DNA from: an uncultured Elusimicrobia bacterium
GTDB lineage: Bacteria > Elusimicrobiota > Elusimicrobia > UBA1565 > UBA9628
NCBI GenBank assembly: GCA_964358065.1
Contig: CAYHNV010000001.1
Coordinates: forward strand, 1-61,871
Length of the DNA: 61,871 bases
Direction of reading: 5' to 3'
Positions 1,909 through 44,641 of the stretch are shown here, one piece after another. The translations under genes and the position numbers were made by a program. The stretch's first letter is position 1. Each line of letters starts with the position of its first letter. Below the pieces are notes generated by a model. The model saw nothing but the letters and a program-made list of their open reading frames with translations, was not told the origin of the DNA and did no database searches.

Positions 1909-2943
1909 ATGGCCCAAGGAAAGTCGCCGCGCAAAGTCGGCATTTTCGGCGCCGGATTGATGGGGAAATTTCACGCGGAGAGCGCGGCAAGCTACGGGGC
2001 CCGCATCGTCAGCGTCTATGACCCGAGGATTGAAGCGGCGCGGGCGGTCGCGGCCAAACACGGCGCGTATGCCGCGGAGGATCCGACTGATTTCTTCGAC
2101 CGGCAACTGGATCTCGTCATCATTGCAACCCCGCCTGCGGTGCGCGTCGAGCCGGTCAGGATGGCGTGTGAGCGCGGCATCCATCTGCTCATCGAAAAAC
2201 CGCCGGCTCTCCGTCTCCACGACGCGCGCACTTGTCTTGGTCTCATTGAGAAAGCCGGCGTCATGGCCGGCTGCGGTTTCCAGCTGCGTTACGGGTCCGC
2301 CTTTGAGAAACTGCGAGACATGCTTGCCGATCAGACCGTGCATCTCGTCCGCACGCTGTTGACCACGGGCTCTTATCTCAACGCTCCGGCGAACTCCTGG
2401 TACCTGCAAAAGCGCCATAGCGGCGGCAGTATCAGTTCGGATGCCATCCATCCCCTGGATGCCGTCCGCTATATGCTCAATAACGCCCGTTGCGTGAAGG
2501 CCCACGCCTTGGCCGTGAAGAACATGGCTCAGGATTGGCCCGACACGGACTGCGAGAACTCCGTCCAGGTGACTTATGAACTGGATAACGGCGTTTTTGG
2601 GACGCACATGAACCACAGCGGATGCGAGGCGGGCGATATCAACTTCGAATTCATCGGCCCGCACCTGCGCCTTTATACCATCGGTTGGGGGAACGGCAGC
2701 ATAAAAGGGCGCTATAAAGGCAAGGACGTTAAGGAGCCGGTGACCGAACAAAGCCGCCTTGGGCTGGACAAAACGGGAGCGATGCTGCGCGCCATCGAAA
2801 CGGGCGACACGTCCCTCATCCGCAGCCCTTTCAGCGACGCGATCCACACCATGGAACTCGTTGAGGCGGCCAATCGAAGCATTCTCACCGGCCAATTCGT
2901 GCGCACGGAAGGTCTCGGACGGGAACTTCCCGTGCCGTCATAG
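1909..2943 (+). CDS. Gfo/Idh/MocA-family NAD(P)-dependent sugar oxidoreductase
   Basis: The C-terminal two thirds of track ORF 1234-2943 are real. The upstream part overlaps wzx antisense and is R/G-rich junk. Rossmann motif KVGIFGAGLMGKFHAE, then DLVIIATPP and HLLIEKPPA (the EKP motif). Start taken at ATG 1909, with an alternative at ATG 1876. The AT-rich stretch 1861-1908 looks like a divergent promoter region. Confidence 0.8.
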   Translation: MAQGKSPRKVGIFGAGLMGKFHAESAASYGARIVSVYDPRIEAARAVAAKHGAYAAEDPTDFFDRQLDLVIIATPPAVRVEPVRMACERGIHLLIEKPPALRLHDARTCLGLIEKAGVMAGCGFQLRYGSAFEKLRDMLADQTVHLVRTLLTTGSYLNAPANSWYLQKRHSGGSISSDAIHPLDAVRYMLNNARCVKAHALAVKNMAQDWPDTDCENSVQVTYELDNGVFGTHMNHSGCEAGDINFEFIGPHLRLYTIGWGNGSIKGRYKGKDVKEPVTEQSRLGLDKTGAMLRAIETGDTSLIRSPFSDAIHTMELVEAANRSILTGQFVRTEGLGRELPVPS

Positions 2944-2959
2944 GCGGCAGCGCTCGAAC

Positions 2960-3952
2960 ATGAGGGTGTGCGTGCTCGGCGGCACCGGCAACATCAGTGC
3001 GGAGATCGTCAAGCTCCTGCTCCGGCTCGGCCATGAGGTTACGTGCTACAACCGCGGCCAGAGCGGCGAGCCGCCCCGGGGTGTTCGTGTGATCCACGGA
3101 GATCGCCAAGATCGCGAGCGCTTCGAACAAGCCATGCAGGCCCAGAGATTCGACGCTGCCATCGACATGATTTGTTTCTCAAAAGACGACGCATCATCAA
3201 GCATTCGCGCTTTCCGCGGCGTGAGGCACTTCGTCCATTGCTCGACGACGACGACGTATGGTCTCGCATTCGATTGGCTGCCGGTGACCGAGGACCATCC
3301 GTTGCGCCCGACCATGGACTCCTCGAAGAATAAAGTTGAGGCGGACAATACGTTCCTGGCCGAATATTACGCCTCAGGCTTCCCGGTCACGATCATCAAG
3401 CCATCGACGACCTACGGTCCCAAGTTAGGCTGGGTGCGGCAAGCGGCTTTTGATCTCTATTGGATAGACCGCGTGCGCAAGGGGAAGCCTATCCTTATTT
3501 GCGGCGATGGCACGGCGATCCATCAATTCCTCCACGTTGAGGATGCGGCCCTGGGCTTCGCGCATGTCCTTGGGAGAAGCCGTTGTGTCGGCCAGACTTA
3601 CAATTTGGTCCGCCGGGAGCATGTTACGTGGCTGGATTACCACAAAACGGCGATGAGGATTCTAGGGCGAGAAGTCGAACTTGTCGGCATTCCGCTGGTC
3701 GACATGGAAGCCATGAGCATTCCCAACCTCGAACTCTGCAAGAATCTATTCGCGCATAATGCGATCTACAGCCCGGAGAAGATTTTCCGCGACGTGCCTG
3801 AGTTCCAGCCCCGCGTCTCGCTCGAGGAGGGATTGCAGCGAGTTCTTGAAACTCTTGACAGGGATCAGCGGGTCCGAAATTCGGATAAATACGACTGGGA
3901 AGACCGTGCCATCGCCGCGCAGCGCAATACGCGAACCGTCGCGATTCGCTGA
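2960..3952 (+). CDS. NAD-dependent epimerase/dehydratase (extended SDR) family protein
   Basis: Internal ATG of ORF 2759-3952. The N-terminus MRVCVLGGTGNISAEIVKLLLRLGHEV carries the GxxGxxG Rossmann motif. About 330 aa. Substrate unknown. It could be the reductase or epimerase partner of Gmd. Confidence 0.75.
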   Translation: MRVCVLGGTGNISAEIVKLLLRLGHEVTCYNRGQSGEPPRGVRVIHGDRQDRERFEQAMQAQRFDAAIDMICFSKDDASSSIRAFRGVRHFVHCSTTTTYGLAFDWLPVTEDHPLRPTMDSSKNKVEADNTFLAEYYASGFPVTIIKPSTTYGPKLGWVRQAAFDLYWIDRVRKGKPILICGDGTAIHQFLHVEDAALGFAHVLGRSRCVGQTYNLVRREHVTWLDYHKTAMRILGREVELVGIPLVDMEAMSIPNLELCKNLFAHNAIYSPEKIFRDVPEFQPRVSLEEGLQRVLETLDRDQRVRNSDKYDWEDRAIAAQRNTRTVAIR

Positions 3953-3976
3953 TAGCGCCCCCCCTGCGCATTTCTC

Positions 3977-4642
3977 CTAGAGTCCTTTCCCCGCCCAAAC
4001 CGTGTGGATCGTGTGGAGGAGGATCTCCGCGTCATACAGGAATCTTCCCGGGGGTGAATAAGCGCGGCATGCGCTGATATATTCGCTGTCGAGGTCCACG
4101 TCCGTTTTCATCGTTTTGACGCCTTTATGGACCTGCGTGAGGCCGCTCAATCCCGCTCGGATGACTTTCTTTTGAAACAGACCGCGCCGCAGATCTTCTT
4201 CGTAATCATTGATCGGGAATGGTCTGGGGCCCACCCAACTCATCTCTCCCCGCAGGATATTGAAAATCTGGGGCAGCTCGTCGAGATACCATTTCTTAAG
4301 ATAGCGCCCGACGACCGTGCAGTATTGTTTCTGCTCCAATGTCTTAAATCGGTCGCGGCGGTGTCGGCTGGGCTCTTCGTTCAGGACGCTGTTTTTTGTG
4401 ATTCGAAACTTATAGAGTGGGAATTCGCGGCCCTCGCTGATCCTCATTTGATGGTAAATGACCGGCCCGCGTGCCGCTGGATTTAACAATCCCTCCACCT
4501 TTATGAGGACGATGATCAGAAGATAAATCGGAAGCAGCACGATCAGCGCTCCCAATGCCAGGATTTTGTCGAAGCTCGCCTTCAGTAGGTCGCAAGGCAC
4601 GTGGGGAGGTTCGTTGTCGAGTCTCTTCTGGCTGTCGGACAT
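3977..4642 (-). CDS. Small monotopic phosphoglycosyl transferase (bacterial sugar transferase, PglC/WbaP C-terminal type)
   Basis: Starts at the internal ATG 4642 (MSDSQKRL...) of ORF 3977-5110. The upstream extension overlaps gmd out of frame. It has a re-entrant helix (ILALGALIVLLPIYLLIIVLI) and the signature YLDELPQIFNILRGEMSWVGPRP. Confidence 0.88.
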   Translation of the reverse strand: MSDSQKRLDNEPPHVPCDLLKASFDKILALGALIVLLPIYLLIIVLIKVEGLLNPAARGPVIYHQMRISEGREFPLYKFRITKNSVLNEEPSRHRRDRFKTLEQKQYCTVVGRYLKKWYLDELPQIFNILRGEMSWVGPRPFPINDYEEDLRRGLFQKKVIRAGLSGLTQVHKGVKTMKTDVDLDSEYISACRAYSPPGRFLYDAEILLHTIHTVWAGKGL

Positions 4643-4646
4643 AGGC

Positions 4647-5654
4647 TTATCCTGCCCGGGGAGGAGTCCACGGTGCTGCGAGCGCGTCGGTGCGACCGGA
4701 GCGCAAGCACTCGAGGTCCCATCGGACCATCGACTTGACGAGTTCTCCAAATCCAACACGTGGTTCCCATCCGAGAAGTCGGCGGGCCTTGGCGGGGTCG
4801 CCGCGAGGCTCGACCGGCTCATGGGGACGGCGTAGGCTCTCCTCGAGGACCACGTGCCTCTTCCAGTCGAGGTCGGCGGCACCGAAAGCCGTCTCAACGA
4901 AATCCTGGACGGAATGGGTCGCGCCCGTGGCGATGACGAAGTCCTCCGGGCGGGCGTAGCGGAGCATGCGGCGCATCGCGTCGACGTAGTCCCCCGCGAA
5001 GCCCCAGTCGCGGCGGGCGGCCAGGTCGCCGAGCCGCAGTTCCGAGGCGCGCCCGAGCTTGATCGCGGCGACGGCACGCGTGATCTTGCGCGTGACGAAG
5101 ACCGGGTCACGGCGCGGAGACTCGTGGTTGAAGCATAGGCCGCTGACCGCGAAAAGGCCGTGGTGCTCGCGGTAGATGGAGACGATGTGGTGCGCGTAGA
5201 CCTTCGCGGCCCCGTAGGGGCTGCGCGGGTTCAGCGGCGTCGCCTCGTCTTGCGGGCTCTGTGCGGGGAGGCCGAACATCTCGGACGACGAGGACTGGTA
5301 GAACCGGGCCTGCGGCGCAAGTCGGCGCACGGACTCGAGGAGGCGGGTCACGCCAAGTCCCGCCACTTCGCCGGCCAGCGCCGCCTCATCCCAGGTTGCC
5401 GGCATGAAGGATTGGGACGCGAAGTTGTAGATCTCATCGGGCCGCGAGGCGTTGATCGCCCGGTCGACCGAGCCCTGGTCGGTCAGGTCGGCCTCGACCA
5501 GCCGGATCCGGCCGCGCACGGCGCCGAGGCGCGTCAGCCCCGTCCGGCCTCCGGGACGGACGAGACCGAGGACCTCGTCGCCGCCGGCGACCAGGAGTTC
5601 CGCCAGGTAGGAGCCGTCTTGGCCGGCCGCGCCGATGATCAGCGCCCTTGTCAT
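4647..5654 (-). CDS. gmd: GDP-mannose 4,6-dehydratase
   Basis: Starts at the internal ATG 5654 (MTRALIIGAAGQDGSYLAELL). Motifs: YGAAKVYA (YxxxK) and LCFNHESPRR (GMD signature). It shares a 4-nt overlap with the upstream methyltransferase stop. Confidence 0.92.
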   Translation of the reverse strand: MTRALIIGAAGQDGSYLAELLVAGGDEVLGLVRPGGRTGLTRLGAVRGRIRLVEADLTDQGSVDRAINASRPDEIYNFASQSFMPATWDEAALAGEVAGLGVTRLLESVRRLAPQARFYQSSSSEMFGLPAQSPQDEATPLNPRSPYGAAKVYAHHIVSIYREHHGLFAVSGLCFNHESPRRDPVFVTRKITRAVAAIKLGRASELRLGDLAARRDWGFAGDYVDAMRRMLRYARPEDFVIATGATHSVQDFVETAFGAADLDWKRHVVLEESLRRPHEPVEPRGDPAKARRLLGWEPRVGFGELVKSMVRWDLECLRSGRTDALAAPWTPPRAG

Positions 5655-6400
5655 CGAGGCGAAAGCGGTCTTTGCGCGCAGGTGATGAAGTTGTCCGTCA
5701 AGATGTGGGAGGAGTGGATGAGCCCCGAGCCCGTGGCGGCGTGCAGGTAGATGCGGGCGCCCTGCTCGATGACGCGCCACATCAGGCGGCGCAGCAAGGC
5801 GCGAAATCCATTGCCGCAAGGACGCGAGGGCAATGAGGCCGGGGAGGCGAAGCCGCAGGTCAACAGAACCTGAGACATGCTGCCCGGTGTAAAGGCGTTC
5901 TCATGAGTGAAGTCGCCATAGCGGATGCGGCCCCAGCCAAAGGCCTCGGCGTTCACTGTCTGAATGATGAGCTTTCCCCCCGGTCGCAGCGCGGCGAGAC
6001 AAGTATCCAAGAAGGGCAGGACCTCGTCCTTTCTCAGGTGCTCGAGCACGTCGATGGCGAAGATTCGCTCAAAACCACGCTCACGCTCCTTCAGGAAAGA
6101 GACGGCGTCACCCTGCGTGACTCCGGTTATGCCCAAACGTCCGGCCGTGGCCGCCATCTCGGAACTGCCGTCGACGCCGCAGGAGTTCTTGTAGCCGCAC
6201 TGCTGAAGCCAGTGCAGCAGGGGACCGTAGCCGCATCCGACATCAGCGATGGGAGCGTCGAGATCGGCAGGGAGATGGGAGCGAAAGAATACCTCGTAGG
6301 AACGACCAGAGAGGGCAAGCCCTCCCGGTGTGGGGTTGCCCACCGTTTTCATGTGCGTGCTGACATAGGCGTCGTACAGCCTTTTTCGGTAGTCGGCCAT
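5651..6400 (-). CDS. Class I SAM-dependent methyltransferase
   Basis: 249 aa. Motif I is IADVGCGYGPLLHWL. Post-motif segments are IFAIDVLEHL and LRPGGKLIIQT. ATG at 6400. Confidence 0.8.
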   Translation of the reverse strand: MADYRKRLYDAYVSTHMKTVGNPTPGGLALSGRSYEVFFRSHLPADLDAPIADVGCGYGPLLHWLQQCGYKNSCGVDGSSEMAATAGRLGITGVTQGDAVSFLKERERGFERIFAIDVLEHLRKDEVLPFLDTCLAALRPGGKLIIQTVNAEAFGWGRIRYGDFTHENAFTPGSMSQVLLTCGFASPASLPSRPCGNGFRALLRRLMWRVIEQGARIYLHAATGSGLIHSSHILTDNFITCAQRPLSPR

Positions 6401-34281: not shown

Positions 34282-36903
34282 ATGGCTGACGCCCGCAAAG
34301 GGACCTTTAAGGAAACCCGTCTTGGCCCCGAGATCTTTGCCCACAAGGCGATCACCCTCTGGCTTCCCGTCCTTTATTTCCTAATTTCCTCGCTGTTCTT
34401 CCTGCGCACCTACGATTCCGCCCAGGTCAAGATCACGATGATGCAGATGGGCGGCGTGGGCCTGCTGACCTTATGGCTGTGCCGTCTGGTCTTGGCCGGA
34501 CGCCGGGCCCTCAACAAAGACGACCTGATCTGTCTTGCCCCGTTTCTGGCCTATCTGCTCGTCGGTATCCTGTCCTTCCTGCACGCTCCCTACCGCATGG
34601 CGAGCATGGACTTCTTCATCCGCCAGATGTTCTACATGCTCGTGGCTCTCATCGTCATCTACGAGCTCGACGAGGCCGCGGTCCACCATCTGTTCAAGTG
34701 GCTTATCTGGACGGCCTGGGTTGCCATCGGCTACGGCATGCTCCAGTTCATTGATACCCGGTGGTTTCCGCCCGGCGCCGGCAAAGGACTCGATCCCTTC
34801 GTGTGGCGGGGCGCCTTCGGTTCCCGTGTCTTCTCGACTTACGGCAACCCAAACTTCTACGGCGATTTCCTCGTCATCATGTTCCCCATCCTGCTGACCC
34901 AGTTCCTAAAGACCAGGCGCTGGAGCCTGGTGCCGCTCTTGGCCATGCTCCTGATCAGCCTCGTGGCGACCGGGACCAAGGGCGCCTGGCTTGGCTTCGC
35001 CATGGTCTGCGTTCTTTTCGGGGCCGCCTCCCTCGTCTACTTCAAGGAGTTCAGCCGCCCCTATCGGGCTCGGATCCTCGGCGTCGCCGCTTTCTGCGCC
35101 CTGGGCCTTATCGGCTACACGGCCAAGGACCTGCAGACGCGCGTCGTCTCGATCAACTTCCGCCTCTTCACCTGGGAGGCCGCCTGGGAGCTTATCCGCA
35201 CCCAGCCGCTGATCGGCTCCGGGGTCGGGGCCTTCCCGCCTCTCTACCCCGCTTTCCGTCGTCCTTCGATCTTCCACATCGAAGGCAAGCATAACACCGA
35301 GACCGACCACGCCGAGAACGAGTACATCGAACAACTCCTCGACAACGGCATCATCGGCTTCGGCATCTTCCTGTGGCTCATTGTCAGCACCCTCTTCATC
35401 GGCTGCAGGTCCCTGGGGCAGTTGACCACCTCCCTGGCGCTCAAGGACGGCCGCCCGCCGCCTCGCGCTTATGACCTGACGGGACTGCTCGTTTCCTTCT
35501 GCGGGATGCTCGGACACAACTTCTTCGACGTGAGCCTGCGCTTCGTGTCCTCGGGCGTCTACCTGGGGCTCTTGGCCGGCCTCATCGTCAACGTGGCCCG
35601 CGGCCGAGCCCTGTACGAGCGCCATAGCGTCCCGGACGCGCTTTCTTCCGCCCAGGCGGCCTCCGCGGAACCTTCGATCTGGCGGACTCTCTCGGAGTTC
35701 ATCCTCTGGCCCGCGCGGCTGGCCGCGCTCGGCGGCGTCCTCTATTGCGCTTTCCTGATGGATTGGGGCCGTCTTGGGCGCCTGATCGGTTTCGGCGGTT
35801 TCTTCGGCGATTTCGCGGCCCTGCTGGGGCCGCTCTCCCGCGTATCGCCCAACGGCGACCTCCTGCAGTGGTGGGCGGCCTGGGGGGTCTTCGCGGGCTG
35901 CATGTTCAGCCTCGGTTATGCCGTCCTCCGTCTCTGCTTCATGTCCGAGAACCCCGTGATCTCGCTGCTGGTCCTGGCCATGCTCGCCCCCTTAAACCTC
36001 TTTTGGGGCTACTTCAAGGCCGACATCCATCATAATGTCGCCATCTATTTCTCGAAGGCGCGCAATTGGGACGCGGCCGTGGCCAACTACCTCATCGTCA
36101 ATAAGCTCAACCGCGACTTTGTCATGGCGAAGTACTTCCTGGGGAACGTCTTTAACGACCGCTTCAACATGACGAAGGTCTACAACCCGAACTGGGGAGA
36201 CAAGGACGACGTTGCGATGGATGACTACGAGCGCGCCTTATACTGGTACAACGAGGTCCGGCGCCTGTCTCCGAACTATGTCCAGATGCATCACCAGGTC
36301 GGCAATCTCCACCTGCGGCGCGCCCAGTGGGCCACGGACAACAAGCGTCCGGAGGAAGCCGCGAAGTACCTGGACCTGGCGGTCAATCGCTACCGCCTCT
36401 ACCAGGCGATAGACCCCGTCTTCGCGCCCAACTACTACCGCATGGGCCAGCTCTATATGATGCGCCAGCAGTACGACGAGGCGACCAAGGTCTACGAGGA
36501 TCTGATCAATGCTCCGCAGTGCGAAGTGGCCGACTCGATCCTTTCAAAAAACATCCTGCGCGGCACCATCCTGTCCTACCAGCAGTACGTTCTGGAGGAC
36601 GGGCGCTGGGCCCATCGCCACGCCATCCCGCGAGAACCGCACATCCGAGAGGGCGCTGAGGCCTACACGAGCCTGGCCAACGCCCATTTCATGGCGGGCC
36701 GTCTCGAGGAGTCCGAAAAGTTCTACAAGAAGGCCCTGTCTTTCGACCCGGCTTTCGAACAGGCCAAGCGCAACCTCGAAGTGGCCTATCGGAAGGCTCA
36801 GTCGGAAGGTCGTCTGAAACAACTGCCTCCGCCCGCCAAGCTGCCGGGTCCCGGGGAGAGTCCCTTCACCGGCTATGAAGTCGCTCCAAAACCTAGGAAG
36901 TAG
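34282..36903 (+). CDS. O-antigen ligase/polymerase-like (Wzy_C domain) membrane protein with C-terminal TPR repeats
   Basis: The N-terminal half has more than 10 TM segments. The HNTETDHAENEYIEQLLDNGIIGFGIF loop is a Wzy_C-type H..N.Y...L.e.G motif. The C-terminal roughly 300 aa are TPR-like (YERALYWYNEVRRLSPNY, YDEATKVYEDLI, LEESEKFYKKALSFDPAF). Confidence 0.8.
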   Translation: MADARKGTFKETRLGPEIFAHKAITLWLPVLYFLISSLFFLRTYDSAQVKITMMQMGGVGLLTLWLCRLVLAGRRALNKDDLICLAPFLAYLLVGILSFLHAPYRMASMDFFIRQMFYMLVALIVIYELDEAAVHHLFKWLIWTAWVAIGYGMLQFIDTRWFPPGAGKGLDPFVWRGAFGSRVFSTYGNPNFYGDFLVIMFPILLTQFLKTRRWSLVPLLAMLLISLVATGTKGAWLGFAMVCVLFGAASLVYFKEFSRPYRARILGVAAFCALGLIGYTAKDLQTRVVSINFRLFTWEAAWELIRTQPLIGSGVGAFPPLYPAFRRPSIFHIEGKHNTETDHAENEYIEQLLDNGIIGFGIFLWLIVSTLFIGCRSLGQLTTSLALKDGRPPPRAYDLTGLLVSFCGMLGHNFFDVSLRFVSSGVYLGLLAGLIVNVARGRALYERHSVPDALSSAQAASAEPSIWRTLSEFILWPARLAALGGVLYCAFLMDWGRLGRLIGFGGFFGDFAALLGPLSRVSPNGDLLQWWAAWGVFAGCMFSLGYAVLRLCFMSENPVISLLVLAMLAPLNLFWGYFKADIHHNVAIYFSKARNWDAAVANYLIVNKLNRDFVMAKYFLGNVFNDRFNMTKVYNPNWGDKDDVAMDDYERALYWYNEVRRLSPNYVQMHHQVGNLHLRRAQWATDNKRPEEAAKYLDLAVNRYRLYQAIDPVFAPNYYRMGQLYMMRQQYDEATKVYEDLINAPQCEVADSILSKNILRGTILSYQQYVLEDGRWAHRHAIPREPHIREGAEAYTSLANAHFMAGRLEESEKFYKKALSFDPAFEQAKRNLEVAYRKAQSEGRLKQLPPPAKLPGPGESPFTGYEVAPKPRK

Positions 36904-38148
36904 CGCCGCAACGCTTGCCTTGGGAGCGCTCCTTTGCGCGGGAGCCGCCGTCGCCGAGCCCCTGGGCAGCGAGCCTGTCCCCCCAAACCGCATCTTTCGT
37001 GCGCTTGAAGCAGAGATGGCGCGCAGCCTCAGGTTTCTCAAGCAAGATCGCTTCGGCCCGCCCTATTTCCTGGCCTACCGGCTCCATGACGCGCGCCGCT
37101 ACGATGTTACGGCCTCTCTCGGCGCCATCGTCGGAAACGAGGACGCCGATTACCGCCTCGCCTACGCGGAGGCGCGCTACGGCGGCCGCGACATCGACAA
37201 TACGGACCTTAACTATCAGGGAGCCGCCTCCAGCGCGCCCTCGGACCCGGAGGTCCTGCGTCAGACCTTCTGGCAGTTGACCGATACGGTCTACAAGGGC
37301 GCTCTCTCCGGCTGGCTTGAGAAGAAGGCCAAACGCGCCACGGAACTCATCACGGATCCGCTCGACGACTTCACGCTTGAAGCCTCCACGGTCGCCGTCG
37401 CGGTCCCGACTTCTCCCGTTTACGACGGCCGCAAGCTCCGGGCCTTGGTTCTGCGTTTGAGCGATGTCTTCCGCGCCTATCCCGATATCCAGGAATCCAA
37501 CGCCTCGGCGACCGTTTCCTGGGCGCGCCGCTCCACGGCTCTTATGACTTCGACTCCGAAGGCTCGCCTTCTCGTCGGACGACCCTCGTGTCGCGCGGAC
37601 TGCTGCGCGAGTTTCTGATGTCGCGCTGGCCGGTAAAGGGATTTGCGCGGACGAACGGCCACGGACGCTCCGATGGGAGGTCTCATCCCACGGGCCGCAT
37701 GGCCAATCTGATCGTCTCGGCGGAGGGCGCGGTCCCGCTCGCGCGGCTGGAAGATCGCCTGCTTGAGCTGACGCGCCTTGCCGGCAAGCCCTATGGGTTT
37801 CTCCTCGTGGGGGCATTCGGCGGGGAGAACCCCACGACGCGCGACTCGGCGCAGACCCTGGAGGTGCGGCCGCGGCTGGTCTATCGCGTGGACGCCAAGA
37901 CCGGCGCGAAGACCCTCGTGCGCGGCGTCAAGCTTGTCGGCACTCCGATTGTGGTCCTTAACCGCATCGTGGCGGCCGGCGACGACATGAGGATCTCGAA
38001 CGGCTTCTCGTGCGGCGCCGAGTCAGGCTGGGTTCCGGTCAGCCAGACCGCGCCGAGCCTGCTCTTCTCCGAAGTCGAACTCCAGCGTCTGCCCGAGGAC
38101 CGTTCGCGGCCGCCGATCCTGCCTTCTCCGCTCCATGACCCTCGCTAG
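36875..38148 (+). pseudogene. Secreted TldD/PmbA-fold protein, disrupted copy (internal deletion plus frameshift near 37530)
   Basis: ORF 36875-37618 has a signal peptide (MKSLQNLGSSAATLALGALLCAGAAVA) and parallels the N-terminal third of gene 38135-39781. A second frame (track ORF 37588-38148, open from further upstream) reads GSYDFDSEGSPSRRTTLVSRGLLREFLMSRWPVKGFARTNGHGR... and parallels the paralog's C-terminal third (GRYEYDDQGVPARRTVLVERGVLKGFLLSRYPVKGFVRSNGHGRG). The middle, about 150 aa, is missing, and the two halves are out of frame. Confidence 0.5.
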
Positions 38149-39781
38149 CATCCTCGTCCTCCTCTTGTCGCCCGTCGCGGCCGCCCCGGCCGCCGACGAG
38201 GCGCTCGAGCGCGCCGTCGCGACGGAGCTGGGGCGGGCCAAGCAGGAGCTGAAGGACGATGGTTATCCCCCGGTCTATCACGCCGCGCTGAATCTTTGGG
38301 ACTTCGACGATTGGGACCGTTGGGGGGCCATGGGGGCCACGCGGGCCGAGGCCACGATGAGTCAACGCATTCTTCTTCCGGATATTCGCGTGGGCGGGCC
38401 CGAACTTGACAATCATCCCGTCACTGCGAAGACGGAATATCTCGGAATCGCCGTTTCCCTGGAGAGCGACGAGTTCGCCTTGCGCCACGCGCTGTGGCGC
38501 GCGCTTGACGGCGCCTATAAGACGGCTTCCGCGGACTACCTGCGCAAGCAGGCTCAGGTGGTCACGCGCGGCAAGGCCGAGTACGACACCGATGATTTGT
38601 CCGCCGAGGCCGCGCTCGCGTGCCGGGCTTCTCGTCCGGCCTCGTCTTGGGACTTGGACCGCCTGCGTCGGCTCGAGGACGCGATTTCCGGTCCGTTTTC
38701 GCGGGTTCCGTGGCTTCTGCACGCGGAGTCGCATGTCGGCCTGCGCCGCCTCTGGACGCGGCGCCGCGACACCGACGGCACGGCGGTGGACAAGGCGGAG
38801 GACTGGGCGCGCGTGGACATGGAGGCCGCGGCGCTGTCCGCGGACGGCCTGCGCCAGAGCGTCTACCGCGAGTTCTACGCCCGCACGCCCGCCGATCTTC
38901 CCTCGGAGGGCACGGTCCGCGCGGCGGCCGACGACATGCTCAAGGACTTGGGCGAGATGCGCGCGGCGGTCACGACCTCACCTTTCAACGCTCCGGCGCT
39001 GGTGGACCCCTCGGTCGCGGCGGCCCTGGTCTTCGCCCTCGGCCAGCGCCTGTCTGGAGAGGAGCAGCGCAACCCCGCCGGCGCGCAGACTTTCCGAGGC
39101 CGGCTCATGGAGAAGATCCTGCCGGAGGAGTTGACGCTCGTCGACGATCCGACGCGGAACGCTTTCCGCGGCCGCGCTCTCTTCGGGCGCTACGAGTACG
39201 ACGACCAGGGCGTGCCCGCCCGTCGCACGGTGCTCGTGGAGCGCGGCGTGCTCAAGGGCTTCCTGCTGTCGCGCTATCCCGTGAAAGGCTTCGTTCGCTC
39301 CAACGGCCACGGCCGCGGTCCCATCGGGCAGATGCCTGTCGGTACGCCCGGCAACCTTTTCCTGAGCTCCGAGCGGCCGCGTTCCGCCGCCGACCTCCTG
39401 GCGCGCCTGCGCGCCGAGTGCCGCCGCGCGGGCAAGTCCCACGGCCTTTGGGTGCGCAAGCTGCGCGCGTATGTCCAGCAGCAGAGCGGCAGCGCCCAGG
39501 GCTCGATCCGTTTCCTGGCGCAGGTCTTCCTTGTCGACGCGGAGAGCGGCAAGACACTGCGGGTGCGCGATCTGGACTTGGTCGGCACGCCCTTGGTGAT
39601 GGCCGGCGGCATCCTGGAGGCCGGCGCGGACGCGGAGGTCAACGAGGCCTACCAGGGGTCTCCCGTGGCGGTGGTCTCGCCGAGCCTCCTGCTCGCAGAC
39701 GTCGAGCTCCAACGCTCGCAGACCAAGCCCGAGAAAGCCCCCCTCCTGCCTCCGCCCACAGCGCCTCCCGTGCGGCCGTGA
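38135..39781 (+). CDS. Secreted TldD/PmbA-family (metallopeptidase-fold) protein lacking an HExxxH motif
   Basis: Signal-like N-terminus MTLASILVLLLSPVAAAPAADE. The C-terminal family-like block reads YEYDDQGVPARRTVLVERGVLKGFLLSRYPVKGFVRSNGHGRG...PGNLFL...VGTPLVM. No HE dipeptide occurs anywhere in the translation. Confidence 0.65.
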   Translation: MTLASILVLLLSPVAAAPAADEALERAVATELGRAKQELKDDGYPPVYHAALNLWDFDDWDRWGAMGATRAEATMSQRILLPDIRVGGPELDNHPVTAKTEYLGIAVSLESDEFALRHALWRALDGAYKTASADYLRKQAQVVTRGKAEYDTDDLSAEAALACRASRPASSWDLDRLRRLEDAISGPFSRVPWLLHAESHVGLRRLWTRRRDTDGTAVDKAEDWARVDMEAAALSADGLRQSVYREFYARTPADLPSEGTVRAAADDMLKDLGEMRAAVTTSPFNAPALVDPSVAAALVFALGQRLSGEEQRNPAGAQTFRGRLMEKILPEELTLVDDPTRNAFRGRALFGRYEYDDQGVPARRTVLVERGVLKGFLLSRYPVKGFVRSNGHGRGPIGQMPVGTPGNLFLSSERPRSAADLLARLRAECRRAGKSHGLWVRKLRAYVQQQSGSAQGSIRFLAQVFLVDAESGKTLRVRDLDLVGTPLVMAGGILEAGADAEVNEAYQGSPVAVVSPSLLLADVELQRSQTKPEKAPLLPPPTAPPVRP

Positions 39782-39800: not shown

Positions 39801-39829
39801 TTGACGCCGGGCGCCAATGCGGATAGACT
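39801..39829 (+). promoter_or_regulatory. Putative sigma70-like promoter (TTGACG-N17-TAGACT) for the GT2/radical-SAM genes
   Basis: TTGACG at 39801-39806, a 17-nt spacer, then TAGACT at 39824-39829. The ATG at 39840 has no Shine-Dalgarno sequence, which implies a very short leader or a leaderless mRNA. Confidence 0.3.
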
Positions 39830-39839
39830 TCCATCTGTT

Positions 39840-40853
39840 ATGACGAGCGCGGAACCACTTTTTTCCATCATTGTCCCGACCTACAACCGCGCCCGCATGC
39901 TGCCCGGCGCGTTGCAGACGGTCAAGGACCAGACCTGCGCAGACTACGAGGTCCTGATCGTCGACGACGGCTCGACCGACGACACCGCCCGCGTGATGCA
40001 GGACTGGGTCAAGGATTCACGCTTCAAGTATCGCCGCCTTGAGAAGAACATCGGCAACATGGCCTGCCGCAACCTGGCCCTGGGCATGGCGGGCGGCAGA
40101 TGGATCACGAATATCGACTCCGATGATTACTGGCTTCCCGAACGCTTGCAGGAGTTCGCTCATTTCATCAAGACGCGTCCCCAGGTCGGCTTTCTGTTCT
40201 CCAACGGATACCTCTACCGCTACGGCCGCATCATCGGCATGGCCTTCGATCCGGCGCGCCCCATCGCCGAGGGGAAGGTTCCCGGACACTACGCCGTTGG
40301 CGAGGAGTTCCTTCCGTACCTGACGACCAACCTCGCCATCCCCCGCGCGCTGTACCAGAAGTACGGACACTATCGCAAGGACATGATCATCCTCGACAAC
40401 GAGCTGTACGCCCGCATGCTCGCCGACGGCGTCGAGGTGGGCGTGATTCGCCGGCCCCTCGCGGTCCGGCGCATCCACGGCGGGCAGGTCACGCACAAGT
40501 GGATTGAGGAGTATCCCGAGGCGGTGGAGGCGCTGAAGGCCGGCGGCGCACCGCCCGAGGTTTTTGCCGCCGAGAAGATCAAGCTCGTGCTGGAGGTCGC
40601 CAAATACCTCTGGCGCAACATCCAACCCCGGAAGGCCCGCGAGTTCATGGAGAAGGAACTGGGGTCCGCCGCCCAGGGGCACTCACTCTATCTCAAGACC
40701 TTCCTGCCTGCTTCGGTCCTGAGCCTGGCCAAAACCCTGCGTCAAGGCGGTCTGATGCTGCGGCATCACCCCCTCTGGGCGTCCGAGGATGAGCAACGAG
40801 TCTACCGGATCATCAACCCGCTGATTGCGCGGGAGACGGCGCCCAGGTCCTAG
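39840..40853 (+). CDS. GT2-family glycosyltransferase
   Basis: ATG 39840 (MTSAEPLFSIIVPTYNRARML). Motifs are LIVDDGSTDDT and NIDSDDYW (DxD). Confidence 0.85.
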   Translation: MTSAEPLFSIIVPTYNRARMLPGALQTVKDQTCADYEVLIVDDGSTDDTARVMQDWVKDSRFKYRRLEKNIGNMACRNLALGMAGGRWITNIDSDDYWLPERLQEFAHFIKTRPQVGFLFSNGYLYRYGRIIGMAFDPARPIAEGKVPGHYAVGEEFLPYLTTNLAIPRALYQKYGHYRKDMIILDNELYARMLADGVEVGVIRRPLAVRRIHGGQVTHKWIEEYPEAVEALKAGGAPPEVFAAEKIKLVLEVAKYLWRNIQPRKAREFMEKELGSAAQGHSLYLKTFLPASVLSLAKTLRQGGLMLRHHPLWASEDEQRVYRIINPLIARETAPRS

Positions 40854-40854
40854 C

Positions 40855-43779
40855 GTGCGGACGATCTGCCTGATCATACCGCCCTCGGTCTTCCTGCTCG
40901 ACGAGCGGGTGTTCATGGCCCTGGGCATCCTCAAGGTGGCCGCGGTGCTTGAGAAGACCGGCCATGCCGTCGAGCTGCTCGACCTCTCCGGCGTCGAGAA
41001 CTTCGAAGAGGTCGTCACACGGCACGCCTCATCCTCCAAAGCCTCCGTGTTCGGCCTGACGGCCACGACCCCCCAACTGCCGGCCGCGGCGAAGATCGTC
41101 GCCGCGCTGCGACGCGCGCGCCCCGACGCGCGCGCTATCCTGGGCGGGCCGCACGTGACCCTCGTCAACGCCGCCTGCAAGCGTGAGACGGCCGCGGGCC
41201 ATGAGGGCCGGGCCGCGACCGCCTTCCAGAAGCTCCAGACGATGTTCGACGTGCTGGTCGCCGGCGACGGCGAGGAGTCCATCCTGCTCGCCGTCAAGGA
41301 CGACGCCCCCAAGCTGATCGACGCCGATGACCCGGCTTCGCCGCTGTTCCTGACGAGCGCGAGGCTGACCGAACTCCCGTTTCCGGCACGCCACCTGGTC
41401 GACGTGGGCAGCTACCGCTATCAGATCGAGGGCCTGCCGGCCATCTCCCTGATCGCCCAGCTCGGCTGCCCGTTTGAATGCGGCTTCTGCGGCGGCCGCC
41501 AGTCCCCGATGCTGCGGCGCATCCGCATGCGCACGACCGAGAACATCGTCGCCGAGATCGAGATGCTGCACCGCGCCTACGGCGTGCGCGGCTTTATGCT
41601 CTACGACGACGAACTCAACGTCAACACGCGCATGATCGAGCTGATGCGCGCGATCCGAGCCCTGCAGGACCGTCTCGGCGTCGAGTTCCGCCTGCGCGGC
41701 TTCGTCAAATCCGAATTATTCAACGACGAGCAGGCCGAGGCCATGCGCCAGGCGGGCTTCCGCTGGATCCTCACCGGCTTTGAGTCCGGCTCGCCGCGCA
41801 TCCTGAAGAACATCAACAAGAAGGCCACGCGAGAGGAGAACACCCGTTGCGTGGAGATCGCGCACAAGCATGGCCTCAAGGTGAAGGCCCTGATGTCGAT
41901 CGGCCATCCGGGAGAGTCGGAGCAGACGATCGCCGAGACGCGAGATTGGCTGCTCTCGGCCAAGCCCGAGGACTTCGACGTGACCATCATCACCACCTAT
42001 CCCGGCACGCCCTACTACGACCGCGCCGTTCCCGTGCCGGGAAAGCCCGGACTCTGGTCCTACACTTATGAGAAGACCGGCGACCGCCTTTTTTCGCAGG
42101 AGGTCGACTATACCGAGGTCGCCGACTACTACAAGGGAAGCCCGGACGGCGGATATAAGTCCTTCGTCTATACCGACCACCTGAGCGCGGAGAAGATCGT
42201 CGAGCTGCGCGACCAGACCGAGCGCGACGTCCGCCGAATTCTCGGCATCCCGTTCAACCCCTGCCGCGTCGCCCACCGCTATGAGCACTCGATGGGCCAG
42301 ACGGAGCTATCCGCCGAGGTGCTGCGCGTCAGCCGCCCCGGCCGGAATTACAGGATACGCTTTGTGGCGCTGCTGCTTGTCGTTGTCGCCCTTTGGCTCG
42401 GGCGGTCGCGGCAGGTCCGCGTGACCCCTCCGCCGGCCAGGCCCGAACCGAGCCCACTTTCCAGGCTCGCAAAAACCCCCCCGCCTCGACCTGCGCCGCA
42501 GCCGCCTGCCGCTCCACCGGCGGCGCCCATTGCTTCCCCGCCGGTCGCGGACATCCCGGCGACTGCCCCGGAGCCGAAGACCGAACTTCATCAAAATCTC
42601 ATCCCAAAGGATATCAGCATTATCCGCAGCTATTACTCTCAAGAGATCTTGGCGCCGGGCTCATCGTTCGGATTGGACATCAACGGTTCTGGATTCACCT
42701 CGGAGTTCGGGCGGATGATCACGATTGATCCAGGCGGCGCGGACATGGCGGTCAAGGACCTGCGCCTGGTGACGGCCAACCAGATCAACGCGAGCATCGA
42801 GGTCGGCACCGATGCGAAAACGGCTTTCTATTACCCCCAAGTCATGATCAAGGGATTGCCGGTCTTCCGCGCCACGCAGCCGTTTGGCGTGGTTCGGCGG
42901 GGGGAGGTTCTGGCGATTAGACAGTTGTCGGTGGCCGAGGACAGCCGCTCGATGCGATTTAGCGTGATCACGAATTTAACCGAGAACATGGTTAAGCAGT
43001 TCTGGGTCGCGCCGACCAAGCCGGACCTGGAAATATCCTCCTTGGAACCGAAACTGCCGTTTGCCGTGGAAGGCACGCTGCGCATCGGCAAGGCCTCGGA
43101 GAGCGGCGCCTCCGGGCTCATCGTTTTTCTCTTCTCCCGTGAAATTTACAGGAGCCGCGACATGGTCAATCTTGCGCTGCCCAACTTGGGCAAGGCCGGA
43201 TTGACGCGAGGAATCAGCGCCGTCGATGCGTTCCATCGCCCGGGCGATACGATCTCTCTTTGGGTGCGAGGCGCTGGTTTTACACCTTCCGATGCGGGCC
43301 TGCTGACTGGTCGCATCGATGGTCTTGACGCGGGTCCGGCCTCGTTCGTCTACGCCTCGCCGACTGAAATATCATTCTCTTTTATTCTGCCGGCGACCGC
43401 TCCAGAGGGTTCCTATGGCGTAACGGTTAATGACGCCGCGGGGAAGGTCCTGGCACGGGCTCAAGACGCCTTGACCATCGTTGCCCCGCTGTGGCTGCGA
43501 GGGGTGGAGGTTTCCCCAAAGGCCCTGGCGGGGCGGACGGCCGTTCTCCATGTCTCAGGACGCGATTTCACCCCCGAGTTCGCCCGGGGCTTCCAGGCCG
43601 CATCCGAGGAACCGGGGATACGCATTTCGCGATTTACGCTGGCCGATCCCTCGACGCTCTCGGCCGAAATCACGATCGGTCCTTCGGTCGCGGCGGGAGA
43701 CTATTGGCTGACGTTCAGCTCCCTCGGCAAACCGGTCCAGCCCCAGTTTCCCGGCTTGATCAAGATTTCGGCCCCATGA
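40855..43779 (+). CDS. B12-binding-domain radical SAM enzyme fused to a TM helix, Pro-rich linker and C-terminal Ig/IPT-like repeats
   Basis: GTG 40855 lies 1 nt after the GT2 stop, with an alternative TTG at 40825. The N-terminal Rossmann-like region reads ICLIIPPSVFLLDERVFMALGILKVAAVLEKTGHAV. The radical SAM motif CPFECGFC is at 41467-41490. The hydrophobic helix FVALLLVVVALWLG lies at about 42358-42402. The Pro-rich segment lies at about 42420-42560. The remainder is beta-rich repeats (INGSGFTSEF, VRGAGFTPSD...GSYGVTVND, VSGRDFTPEF...GDYWLTFSS). Confidence 0.7.
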   Translation: MRTICLIIPPSVFLLDERVFMALGILKVAAVLEKTGHAVELLDLSGVENFEEVVTRHASSSKASVFGLTATTPQLPAAAKIVAALRRARPDARAILGGPHVTLVNAACKRETAAGHEGRAATAFQKLQTMFDVLVAGDGEESILLAVKDDAPKLIDADDPASPLFLTSARLTELPFPARHLVDVGSYRYQIEGLPAISLIAQLGCPFECGFCGGRQSPMLRRIRMRTTENIVAEIEMLHRAYGVRGFMLYDDELNVNTRMIELMRAIRALQDRLGVEFRLRGFVKSELFNDEQAEAMRQAGFRWILTGFESGSPRILKNINKKATREENTRCVEIAHKHGLKVKALMSIGHPGESEQTIAETRDWLLSAKPEDFDVTIITTYPGTPYYDRAVPVPGKPGLWSYTYEKTGDRLFSQEVDYTEVADYYKGSPDGGYKSFVYTDHLSAEKIVELRDQTERDVRRILGIPFNPCRVAHRYEHSMGQTELSAEVLRVSRPGRNYRIRFVALLLVVVALWLGRSRQVRVTPPPARPEPSPLSRLAKTPPPRPAPQPPAAPPAAPIASPPVADIPATAPEPKTELHQNLIPKDISIIRSYYSQEILAPGSSFGLDINGSGFTSEFGRMITIDPGGADMAVKDLRLVTANQINASIEVGTDAKTAFYYPQVMIKGLPVFRATQPFGVVRRGEVLAIRQLSVAEDSRSMRFSVITNLTENMVKQFWVAPTKPDLEISSLEPKLPFAVEGTLRIGKASESGASGLIVFLFSREIYRSRDMVNLALPNLGKAGLTRGISAVDAFHRPGDTISLWVRGAGFTPSDAGLLTGRIDGLDAGPASFVYASPTEISFSFILPATAPEGSYGVTVNDAAGKVLARAQDALTIVAPLWLRGVEVSPKALAGRTAVLHVSGRDFTPEFARGFQAASEEPGIRISRFTLADPSTLSAEITIGPSVAAGDYWLTFSSLGKPVQPQFPGLIKISAP

Positions 43780-43807: not shown

Positions 43808-44641
43808 TTATTCGTCAGCGGCGGGCAGGGGGGTGAGTATACCTTTGTGGTGCAGGAATCCGCTGGATCGGGGGTAGTCGTAGCAATTGGCCAACCCGCA
43901 CTTGTTTAATATTTTTTCGCTGAAATGACTGCAGTTATTGCTCAGATAACCAAATCTAAAGGCCTTTTTTGTATAGACTTTGGCCCTGCCATCCAAGCAA
44001 TCCTTGTACCAAGCAAGAGATTCTCGCGGCTCTTTACCATTCAGGCAAACAGGCATTGAAGACAGGTGCGGGTTCCATGCTTCCAAGCTTTTCCGTTCGT
44101 CAGCGTCTTCATAAAGAATAACATCGCCCTTCCCCGAGGAAACAGAATACCCCATGAGCGTCGCCTTGATCCCATATCGGGTAAATTGAGGTTCTTTGAT
44201 GCGGTTGTATTCGTTGCTGTCTTGAAGTTCCAGCTGCCAAAAAGAACCATCTTCGTCTACGATTCGAACAGCGGCATGGCTCAAAATGCGCAATGCCTGG
44301 TAAAATTCCAGACTGATGCCCGGAACAATTATTGAAAAATCGCCATCAACGCGAGCGGGCGAGGTCGCGCTGGTCTGGGGGGCGGCAGGGGCCTTGATTG
44401 CTCCGGCTTCAGACAGGAACTCGTCGACAGCCAGGCTCTGCCCCGCGCCAAATCCCGCATCTTGCCCCCAGGAGGACCCCGCGGAAACGGCGATCAGACA
44501 AAGAAATCCCGCCGCCACGACTCCGGCTCGATTTTTCTCCACTCGTTCAGCCCCCCACCGTCGAATGTTGTGAGTATAGCCTGGGCGCCGGCTTTCGTGT
44601 CTGGGCCGGAGGACCCACAGAAGAAGCGCTAAGAGGCCCAT
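43808..44641 (-). CDS. Secreted hypothetical protein with LRAT/NlpC-P60-like (NCxHF) C-terminal domain
   Basis: ATG 44641, with an alternative GTG at 44542 just before the signal-like AGVVAAGFLCLIAVSAGSSWG. The C-terminal motif FGYLSNNCSHFSEKILNKCG resembles the NCEHF catalytic-Cys motif of LRAT/H-rev107 enzymes. An upstream His lies in ILSHAAVRIVDEDG. The gene body is conspicuously AT-richer than its flanks. Confidence 0.5.
   Translation of the reverse strand: MGLLALLLWVLRPRHESRRPGYTHNIRRWGAERVEKNRAGVVAAGFLCLIAVSAGSSWGQDAGFGAGQSLAVDEFLSEAGAIKAPAAPQTSATSPARVDGDFSIIVPGISLEFYQALRILSHAAVRIVDEDGSFWQLELQDSNEYNRIKEPQFTRYGIKATLMGYSVSSGKGDVILYEDADERKSLEAWNPHLSSMPVCLNGKEPRESLAWYKDCLDGRAKVYTKKAFRFGYLSNNCSHFSEKILNKCGLANCYDYPRSSGFLHHKGILTPLPAADE

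Follow-up and report, generated by a model that had tools for sequence, protein, structure and literature searches.

The window analysed here, 61,871 nucleotides (nt) of contig CAYHNV010000001.1 from an uncultured Elusimicrobia bacterium, carries an open reading frame (ORF) in which an enzyme of the radical S-adenosylmethionine (rSAM) superfamily is continued by a membrane helix, a Pro-rich linker and an array of immunoglobulin (Ig)-like domains (Table 1). We consider it likely that this ORF is real and arose recently in evolution by the in-frame joining of two unrelated genes. The fusion was found in one Elusimicrobiota population of the Hainich H41 groundwater well and is probably tolerated as an accident. 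The first gene would have encoded a cytoplasmic class-B rSAM enzyme of a glycan-associated family, and the second an Elusimicrobiota envelope protein with an N-in signal anchor, a Pro-rich spacer and four Ig-like domains. A rearrangement would have joined the first gene, directly past S493, to a point about two codons into the second, with the loss of the short variable tail and stop codon of the former and of the start codon of the latter.

The frame ran uninterrupted from a GTG at 40855 to the stop codon at 43777–43779, giving a protein of 974 amino acids (aa). The original prediction, made from the DNA letters alone, had described one open frame of about 975 codons with five parts in order, and both the frame and the order (B12-binding-type Rossmann domain, radical SAM core, apolar helix, Pro-rich linker, four Ig-like beta-sandwiches) were confirmed in position. 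An alternative start at 40825 (TTG) would lengthen the frame by 10 codons. The start at 40855 is favoured because the ~90% identical protein of a close relative (P0121) likewise begins with GTG, 1 nt 3' of its own GT2 glycosyltransferase gene.

Table 1. Features of the fused gene and its upstream neighbour (positions are those of the window).
Feature	Position	Strand	Remarks
GT2 glycosyltransferase gene	39801..40853	+	PF00535 102.9 bits; two-gene cassette with the rSAM part
Fused ORF	40855..43779	+	974 codons plus stop
rSAM-derived part, aa 1-493	40855..42333	+	Entire conserved core of a family of stand-alone rSAM proteins tied to glycan gene clusters
B12-binding-type Rossmann domain, aa 22-125	40918..41229	+	PF02310 53.8 bits, cut-off 32.1
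Radical SAM core, aa 202-366	41458..41952	+	PF04055 98.5 bits, cut-off 29.5
Putative fusion junction, codon S493 (AGC) / codon R494 (CGC)	42331..42336	+	Homology to the relative stops at 42333
Putative former signal anchor of the Ig-module gene: RPGRNYRIR plus apolar helix FVALLLVVVALWLG	42334..42402	+	Aligns with homologue N-termini; now a predicted internal transmembrane segment
Pro-rich linker, aa ~517-587	42403..42615	+	Length and sequence vary among homologues
Ig-like domain 1, aa 588-679	42616..42891	+	AlphaFold2 model residues 14-105, pLDDT >90; family alignment
Ig-like domain 2, aa 685-773	42907..43173	+	AlphaFold2 model residues 111-199
Ig-like domain 3, aa 782-875, IPT/TIG-like	43198..43479	+	AlphaFold2 model residues 208-301; family profile
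Ig-like domain 4, aa 881-972, IPT/TIG-like	43495..43770	+	AlphaFold2 model residues 307-398; family profile

The probable fusion junction and its recurrence in replicate assemblies

The relative P0121, the third member of the same 90%-identity protein cluster, is a stand-alone rSAM protein of 500 aa that stops 7 codons past the position of the junction. Its C-terminus (..EVLRVSDLPPAA / ..AEVLRVSDLPPAA, then stop) ends in a DLPPAA tail past the junction and is followed by unrelated genes. At the DNA level, window positions 39845–42333 were 88.8% identical to positions 1299–3790 of the relative's locus (L002); the match covered only the GT2 and rSAM genes, and neither flank was common to the two. 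From R494 onward, the window sequence aligned instead with the N-termini of stand-alone Ig-module proteins. No ATG, GTG or TTG was found between 42334 and 42363, from which we conclude that the Ig module has lost its own start; the nearest in-frame starts, ATG at 42292 and GTG at 42319, both lie within rSAM-derived DNA. No long repeat was found at the junction, and promoter and terminator signals there did not exceed the shuffled expectation.

Simpler origins of the long frame were considered and set aside. A missed stop codon or frameshift within the conserved rSAM core was rejected, as family homology continued in frame up to the last conserved motif, and a point-mutated stop codon was rejected, as the sequence past 42333 was unrelated to the tail of the relative. 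A simple deletion between ancestral neighbours was not supported, as no relative had an Ig module beside the rSAM gene.

The same junction occurred, gap-free, in two more assemblies from replicate samples of the Hainich H41 well. One contig (L001; ERZ1292624, Hain_H41_01um_R3; 3366 nt) had 7 mismatches to the window, all near the contig end, and the other (L030; ERZ1292625, Hain-H41-01um-R1; 2330 nt) had 3 base differences. The G+C content at third codon positions (GC3) was ~0.90 in the rSAM part, fell to 0.62–0.81 across the Ig part and to 0.57 in the minus-strand ORF that follows, and returned to 0.78–0.87 in genes further downstream; the genes on either side of the junction had GC3 values of ~0.7–0.87, with no lasting shift in composition. 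This pattern fits a local insert of ~2.4 kb rather than a join of two genomes. A chimera of two genomes is also unlikely given the similar GC3 far upstream and downstream, the lack of a junction repeat and the presence of the same join in three assemblies. Together, these results indicated that the fusion is probably real, recent and specific to the Hainich H41 Elusimicrobiota population.

The minus-strand ORF directly 3' of the fused gene (43808–44641, convergent, 277 aa) had no Pfam match, and its GC3 of 0.57 is below the ~0.8 of its neighbours. This ORF and the Ig module may have been acquired as a unit, as a lower-GC stretch of ~2.4 kb.

Probable parent families and their gene neighbourhoods

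The original prediction of a B12-binding N-terminal domain and an rSAM core was confirmed by Pfam (PF02310 and PF04055), with the CxxxCxxC motif CPFECGFC exactly at 41467–41490 (aa 205–212). Judged by these domains, the rSAM half is a member of the radical SAM superfamily with class-B (B12-binding-domain) architecture. AlphaFold2 modelled the rSAM core with high confidence, and the top Foldseek matches of the model were TsrM, AprD4 and MgmA, with TokK, OxsB and CysS also matched.

A word-indexed search of 5.8 billion protein clusters returned 340 matches, of which the 120 listed were 56–69% identical. Among the matches listed, non-fused and intein-free homologues were 535–601 aa long (the longest, P0002, with an N-terminal extension) and covered just the first 48–52% of the query, and only two matches to the fused protein were full-length, the protein of the window itself and a partial copy identical to it. 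Family homology continued in frame to ..EVLRVS (aa 493), beyond which members have a short variable tail; a soluble stand-alone member would be expected to end 7–40 residues past the ..ILRxS motif, and the window protein runs 481 residues further. All 96 invariant family columns were retained in the window, with a deviation at one of the 212 nearly invariant positions, and by this measure the rSAM half is intact.

None of the NCBIfam equivalog cut-offs was approached. The best score was to the PhpK family (110.7 bits against a cut-off of 600), followed by HpnJ (106.7 against 577.6) and BchE (100.2 against 481), and the named rSAM families compared also included ApyD, AprD4, HpnR, BzaD and MgmA. 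On these scores, the rSAM half falls in none of the named equivalogs. The family to which it belongs is widespread, strongly conserved and uncharacterised, with members of roughly 500–550 aa, and its carriers in culture include Rhodoplanes sp. Z2-YC6860 and Azospirillum fermentarium, which makes its chemistry testable.

Four members of the family (P0003, P0008, P0016 and P0041) carry a fused C-terminal NTP-transferase domain (PF00483). At one locus (L008, 7001–13254), the NTP-transferase-fused rSAM gene adjoins a second NTP-transferase gene, an epimerase/dehydratase gene and a second B12-rSAM gene of 692 aa. These fusions and this context suggest that the family may act in chemistry at the sugar-nucleotide level. 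The checked homologues of 764–957 aa had either a C-terminal NTP-transferase domain or an intein. Many members of ~814–957 aa carry an intein (P0026, P0023, P0028–P0030, P0034, P0044, P0045, P0052, P0053 and others); in P0026 the insertion point falls exactly between ..AQLG and the first Cys of CPFxCGFC, which would make the cluster-ligand cysteine the +1 splice nucleophile. Other C-terminal fusions among the long homologues (814–957 aa) were rejected, as both proteins checked proved to contain inteins or insertions.

We read the rSAM contexts at four loci in addition to the window (three distant and one from the close relative), and all five were glycan or polysaccharide neighbourhoods. Genes for Bac_transf (PF02397, a sugar transferase) and for Wza-type export were present at all three distant loci, and GT4, Wzy, Wzz, flippase, NTP-transferase, epimerase or second B12-rSAM genes at one or more of the three; the close relative had a GT2 gene directly upstream. 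Neither an Ig module nor a TldD-like gene was present at any of the four loci. Given the glycan-cluster context and the NTP-transferase fusions, the substrate is most likely a sugar nucleotide or a lipid-linked sugar undergoing radical modification. The best sequence match of the rSAM half to a solved structure was the aminoglycoside diol-dehydratase AprD4. Methylation is one candidate among other radical chemistries, and the sequence and fold do not by themselves imply cobalamin use: AprD4 and ArsL have the class-B fold yet bind no cobalamin (PMC12931638).

In the second half of the protein, the Arg-flanked hydrophobic helix of the original prediction was borne out. The 14-residue segment FVALLLVVVALWLG (aa 503–516, 42361–42402) is flanked by R497, R500 and R502 on one side and R517, R519 and R522 on the other, and its region contains the highest 19-residue Kyte-Doolittle window of the protein (1.67). 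AlphaFold2 placed a helix at residues 499–517, with low confidence and no alignment depth in this region. A conserved LIPKD motif marks the end of the linker, directly 5' of Ig-like domain 1.

Pfam gave no match in the last ~480 residues of the 974-aa protein. An AlphaFold2 model of aa 575–974, built on a 27-sequence alignment, had a mean predicted local distance difference test (pLDDT) of 92.9 and showed four beta-sandwiches of ~90 residues each, and Foldseek matched this region to the tandem-Ig proteins titin, FdeC, invasin, SGBP-B and SbsC. The original prediction of ~400 aa of Ig/IPT repeats therefore held for the fold, as four Ig-like domains. At the level of sequence it was worded too strongly: a BLASTP self-comparison found no sequence-level repeats among the four domains, and Pfam TIG (PF01833) gave no direct match to the window protein at E-values up to 1. 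The TIG relationship appeared only through the family profile, in which domains 3–4 (positions ~312–488) matched proteins with 8 TIG repeats (1e-33 and 1e-27).

A search with aa 497–974 found 26 homologues (P0123–P0148), all annotated as hypothetical, 38–53% identical over the ~400-aa module and without a Pfam match within it. Those with a called start begin with a positively charged MNRNERN-like stretch, continue with a hydrophobic segment ending in W and a Pro-rich linker, and reach the module at LHKELIPKDI...; the ...SRPGRNYRIRFVALLLVVVALWLG of the window aligned with the N-termini of the stand-alone homologues. The window module follows the family layout (motifs LIPKD..., NGSGF, TANQI, PVF.A..PF.VVR, HRPGD, GRD and GDY), retains all 42 invariant family columns and deviates from the consensus at 6 of 71 nearly invariant positions, inside the family range of 0–23%. 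As far as these conserved positions tell, the Ig half is intact as well.

Searched with the family profile, 1.84 billion representatives yielded 475 matches at E-values up to 0.001, 47 of them reaching 1e-30. The long full-length members inspected start with the anchor alone, with the anchor together with other repeats or a duplicated module, or with a receiver (REC) or REC-GGDEF portion in front of the anchor, the last in P0135 (L010, 5001–7358), P0157 and P0165. An rSAM domain was found neither in the 26 direct homologues nor in the inspected full-length profile matches. All named records of the family were from Elusimicrobiota, as were the 19 Ig-module loci found in GTDB species-representative genomes (all Elusimicrobia/Elusimicrobiota metagenome-assembled genomes). 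The module, which carries no annotation anywhere, often occurs in two copies per genome, in tandem at one locus (L013, ~2920–4116 and 4989–6188).

We read 24 Ig-module loci, five with gene calls and the 19 genome loci, with flanks of 5–8 kb where the contig allowed. No rSAM, GT2, TldD-like or Wzy gene was found near the module within these flanks at any of the 24. For the 19 genome loci, tblastn was run with the rSAM, GT2, TldD-like, Wzy, PMT_2, downstream ORF and Band_7 proteins of the window and gave no match, and a positive control with the module itself worked. The contexts of the five gene-called loci varied: UPRTase (PF14681) with CYTH (PF01928), a hydrolase with a 5'-nucleotidase, a class II tRNA synthetase, a lysine-decarboxylase-family gene (PF03641) and a two-component operon. 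A downstream neighbour in common was rejected, as the ORF at 43808–44641 resembled neither the CYTH gene beside P0124 nor anything at the 19 genome loci. Conservation of a GT2 plus TldD-like neighbourhood was not seen: the TldD/PmbA genes are not kept with the rSAM gene at the four loci, and both GT2 and TldD-like genes are absent from the 24 module loci.

Predicted topology and competing readings

The original prediction had placed the enzyme inside and the Ig repeats outside, and hydropathy and comparative architecture support this topology. The segment is a signal anchor in stand-alone members, REC or REC-GGDEF portions precede it in others, and rSAM chemistry needs the cytoplasm; we therefore infer an N-in, C-out orientation. 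Translation from 40855 would hold the rSAM enzyme at the cytoplasmic face of the membrane, joined by a linker of ~9 residues to a single N-in, C-out helix, and would put the Pro-rich spacer and the Ig domains on the periplasmic side. The junction would use the permissive end of each partner. It may have been tolerated because the tail of the rSAM family is variable and elsewhere bears an NTP-transferase, and because the N-terminus of the Ig-module family is cytoplasmic and elsewhere carries REC or REC-GGDEF. A tolerated recent accident is the simplest reading, since both joined ends take additions in other proteins and nothing associates one family with the other, and the fusion would then be neutral. 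Nothing indicates a common substrate for the two halves.

Several points weigh against a neutral accident or against the fusion being real. The pre-fusion state, with the two genes adjacent and separate, was found in no relative, so that the rearrangement is deduced rather than observed. The three assemblies represent a single site and a single population, and in two of them the contig is short and of low coverage (named cov_5 and cov_2). The drop in GC3 fits a recently inserted segment, but a local mis-join would look alike. The absence of a conserved neighbourhood is also compatible with a function gained after the fusion, and membrane tethering of a glycan-pathway enzyme could be useful. 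Finally, the recurrent REC and REC-GGDEF partners may point to the Ig module as a general localisation or sensing device and not a passive passenger.

It is unlikely, although the two in-frame start codons lie 14 and 23 codons ahead of the helix, that the Ig protein is made separately from GTG 42319 or ATG 42292, with the signal anchor restored (MLRVSRPGRNYRIRF...) and the 974-aa form a minor or unstable by-product. The resulting N-terminus would resemble those of stand-alone homologues, and a GGAG lies 12 nt upstream of GTG 42319. However, the location of both codons in rSAM-derived DNA would make them fortuitous rather than the original start of the module. The spacing of the GGAG is long, and Shine-Dalgarno motifs are rare among the window genes, so the GGAG says little. 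No promoter-like site was found nearby, and ribosomes translating the rSAM part meet no stop codon and must read through.

Selection of the fusion for a coupled function appears improbable. The Ig array would then position, scaffold or sense for the rSAM enzyme at the site of periplasmic or surface glycan assembly and link precursor modification to export. Both halves are intact, and the gene ends a glycan cluster with PMT_2 (PF13231), Wzy_C-TPR and GT2 genes. The rSAM family lies in glycan neighbourhoods, whose machinery is membrane-bound, at every locus read, and the fusion of the same Ig module to REC and REC-GGDEF in other Elusimicrobiota shows that it can be the outer part of two-compartment proteins. 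On the other hand, the fusion occurred once among the billions of proteins searched, P0121 lacks the Ig part despite belonging to the same 90% cluster, and in none of the 28 loci read do members of both families occur together; the rSAM-NTP-transferase fusions, moreover, point to soluble sugar-nucleotide chemistry. The earlier proposal that a cytoplasmic glycan or lipid step is coupled to a surface scaffold found no evidence; the families are separate elsewhere and never neighbours in the loci read. Just as doubtful is the broader idea that the four-Ig module serves generally to dock or sense in the periplasm and so to place cytoplasmic domains (REC, REC-GGDEF and here rSAM) at a particular envelope site, with the fusion selected to couple radical modification of glycan precursors to the site of polymer assembly and export.

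An artefact, in which a mis-join at 42333/42334 or the loss of a stop codon from the contig would make two genes look like one, is very unlikely: the fall in GC3 at the junction, the low coverage of the supporting contigs and a neighbouring gene split over two frames (36875–38148, implying at least one indel error in the contig or a pseudogene) would agree with it, but three assemblies, two of them from replicate samples (R1 and R3), have a common gap-free junction without a long repeat, the composition returns to the window norm downstream, the unrelated sequences past 42333 exclude a mutated stop codon, and a random mis-join would rarely preserve the frame and at the same time coincide exactly with the last residue of one core and a point about two codons inside the other gene.

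The fusion matters little in itself; confined to one population of an uncultured bacterium, it shows mainly that the C-terminal tail of the rSAM family and the cytoplasmic N-terminus of the Ig module both tolerate additions. More useful are the two families it exposes, an uncharacterised glycan-associated rSAM family and an unannotated Elusimicrobiota Ig module joined repeatedly to cyclic di-GMP or receiver domains. A functional fusion would provide a rare 'Rosetta stone' link from one family to the other, and were the docking or sensing idea true, no earlier class-B rSAM enzyme would have been membrane-tethered and spanned two compartments.

Relation to known systems and surrounding genes

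The rSAM half shares an N-terminal Rossmann domain and an rSAM barrel with CxxxCxxC with TsrM (6wtf), AprD4 (6fd2), MgmA/QCMT (9ccb), TokK, OxsB and CysS. Foldseek E-values against the class-B structures ranged from 1e-21 to 1e-13, with query-normalised TM-scores of 0.50–0.63 and identities of just 15–20%; sequence matches to solved structures were AprD4 (7.5e-17), MgmA (4.3e-15) and, weakly, TsrM (4.2e-05). Unlike the window protein, these six enzymes have no transmembrane helix or extracytoplasmic domain. Compared to its own polysaccharide-cluster family (P0121, P0009 and P0011), the window protein has the common core, the upstream glycosyltransferase gene and the glycan cluster, and it alone is extended by a transmembrane helix and Ig-like domains.

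The anchor, Pro-rich linker and LIPKD layout are the same as in the anchored four-Ig family of Elusimicrobiota (P0123–P0148, L011–L029). Like the REC-GGDEF-fused members, the window protein has a cytoplasmic domain ahead of the anchor; unlike the REC and REC-GGDEF members, its cytoplasmic partner is an enzyme of a different pathway and its module has no start of its own. TonB combines an N-terminal membrane anchor, a Pro-rich periplasm-spanning spacer and a C-terminal domain, and the window protein resembles it in the anchor and spacer architecture, a resemblance of layout. The tandem beta-sandwich array is matched by fold in the IPT/TIG-repeat adhesins invasin and FdeC and in SbsC, and the window protein lacks an outer-membrane barrel or adhesin tip domain.

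The original prediction knew of no characterised member with such an architecture, and no second rSAM-helix-Ig protein was found in the 5.8 billion protein clusters (word-indexed search) or the 1.84 billion representatives (profile search). Literature searches turned up no relevant report of a characterised B12-rSAM enzyme that is membrane-anchored or belongs to a polysaccharide cluster. None of the words membrane, transmembrane, fused and polysaccharide occurs in a 2026 review of B12-dependent rSAM enzymes (PMC12931638). We regard the fused architecture as new because no fused homologue was found and because membrane, transmembrane and fused are missing from that review.

In the two relatives, the GT2-rSAM pair forms a two-gene cassette in otherwise unrelated surroundings. 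The 3' flank of the cassette in L002 contains a small gene seemingly split over two overlapping frames (3840–4408), by eye of the ORF6N DNA-binding type, which hints at an insertion-prone site. In the window, the fused gene is preceded by Wzy_C-TPR, PMT_2 (PF13231), TldD/PmbA-like and GT2 genes, and its predicted place as the last gene of a glycan operon was borne out as the end of a glycan gene cluster. The GT2 gene indeed ends 1 nt upstream, at 40853. Of the two TldD/PmbA genes predicted before it, one (38135–39781) is intact and the other (36875–38148, plus strand) is split over two frames, with a signal-peptide N-terminal part in the ORF at 36875–37618 and a PF19289 C-terminal part (30 bits) at 37588–38148. 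The split gene is either a frameshifted pseudogene or the product of an indel error in the contig.

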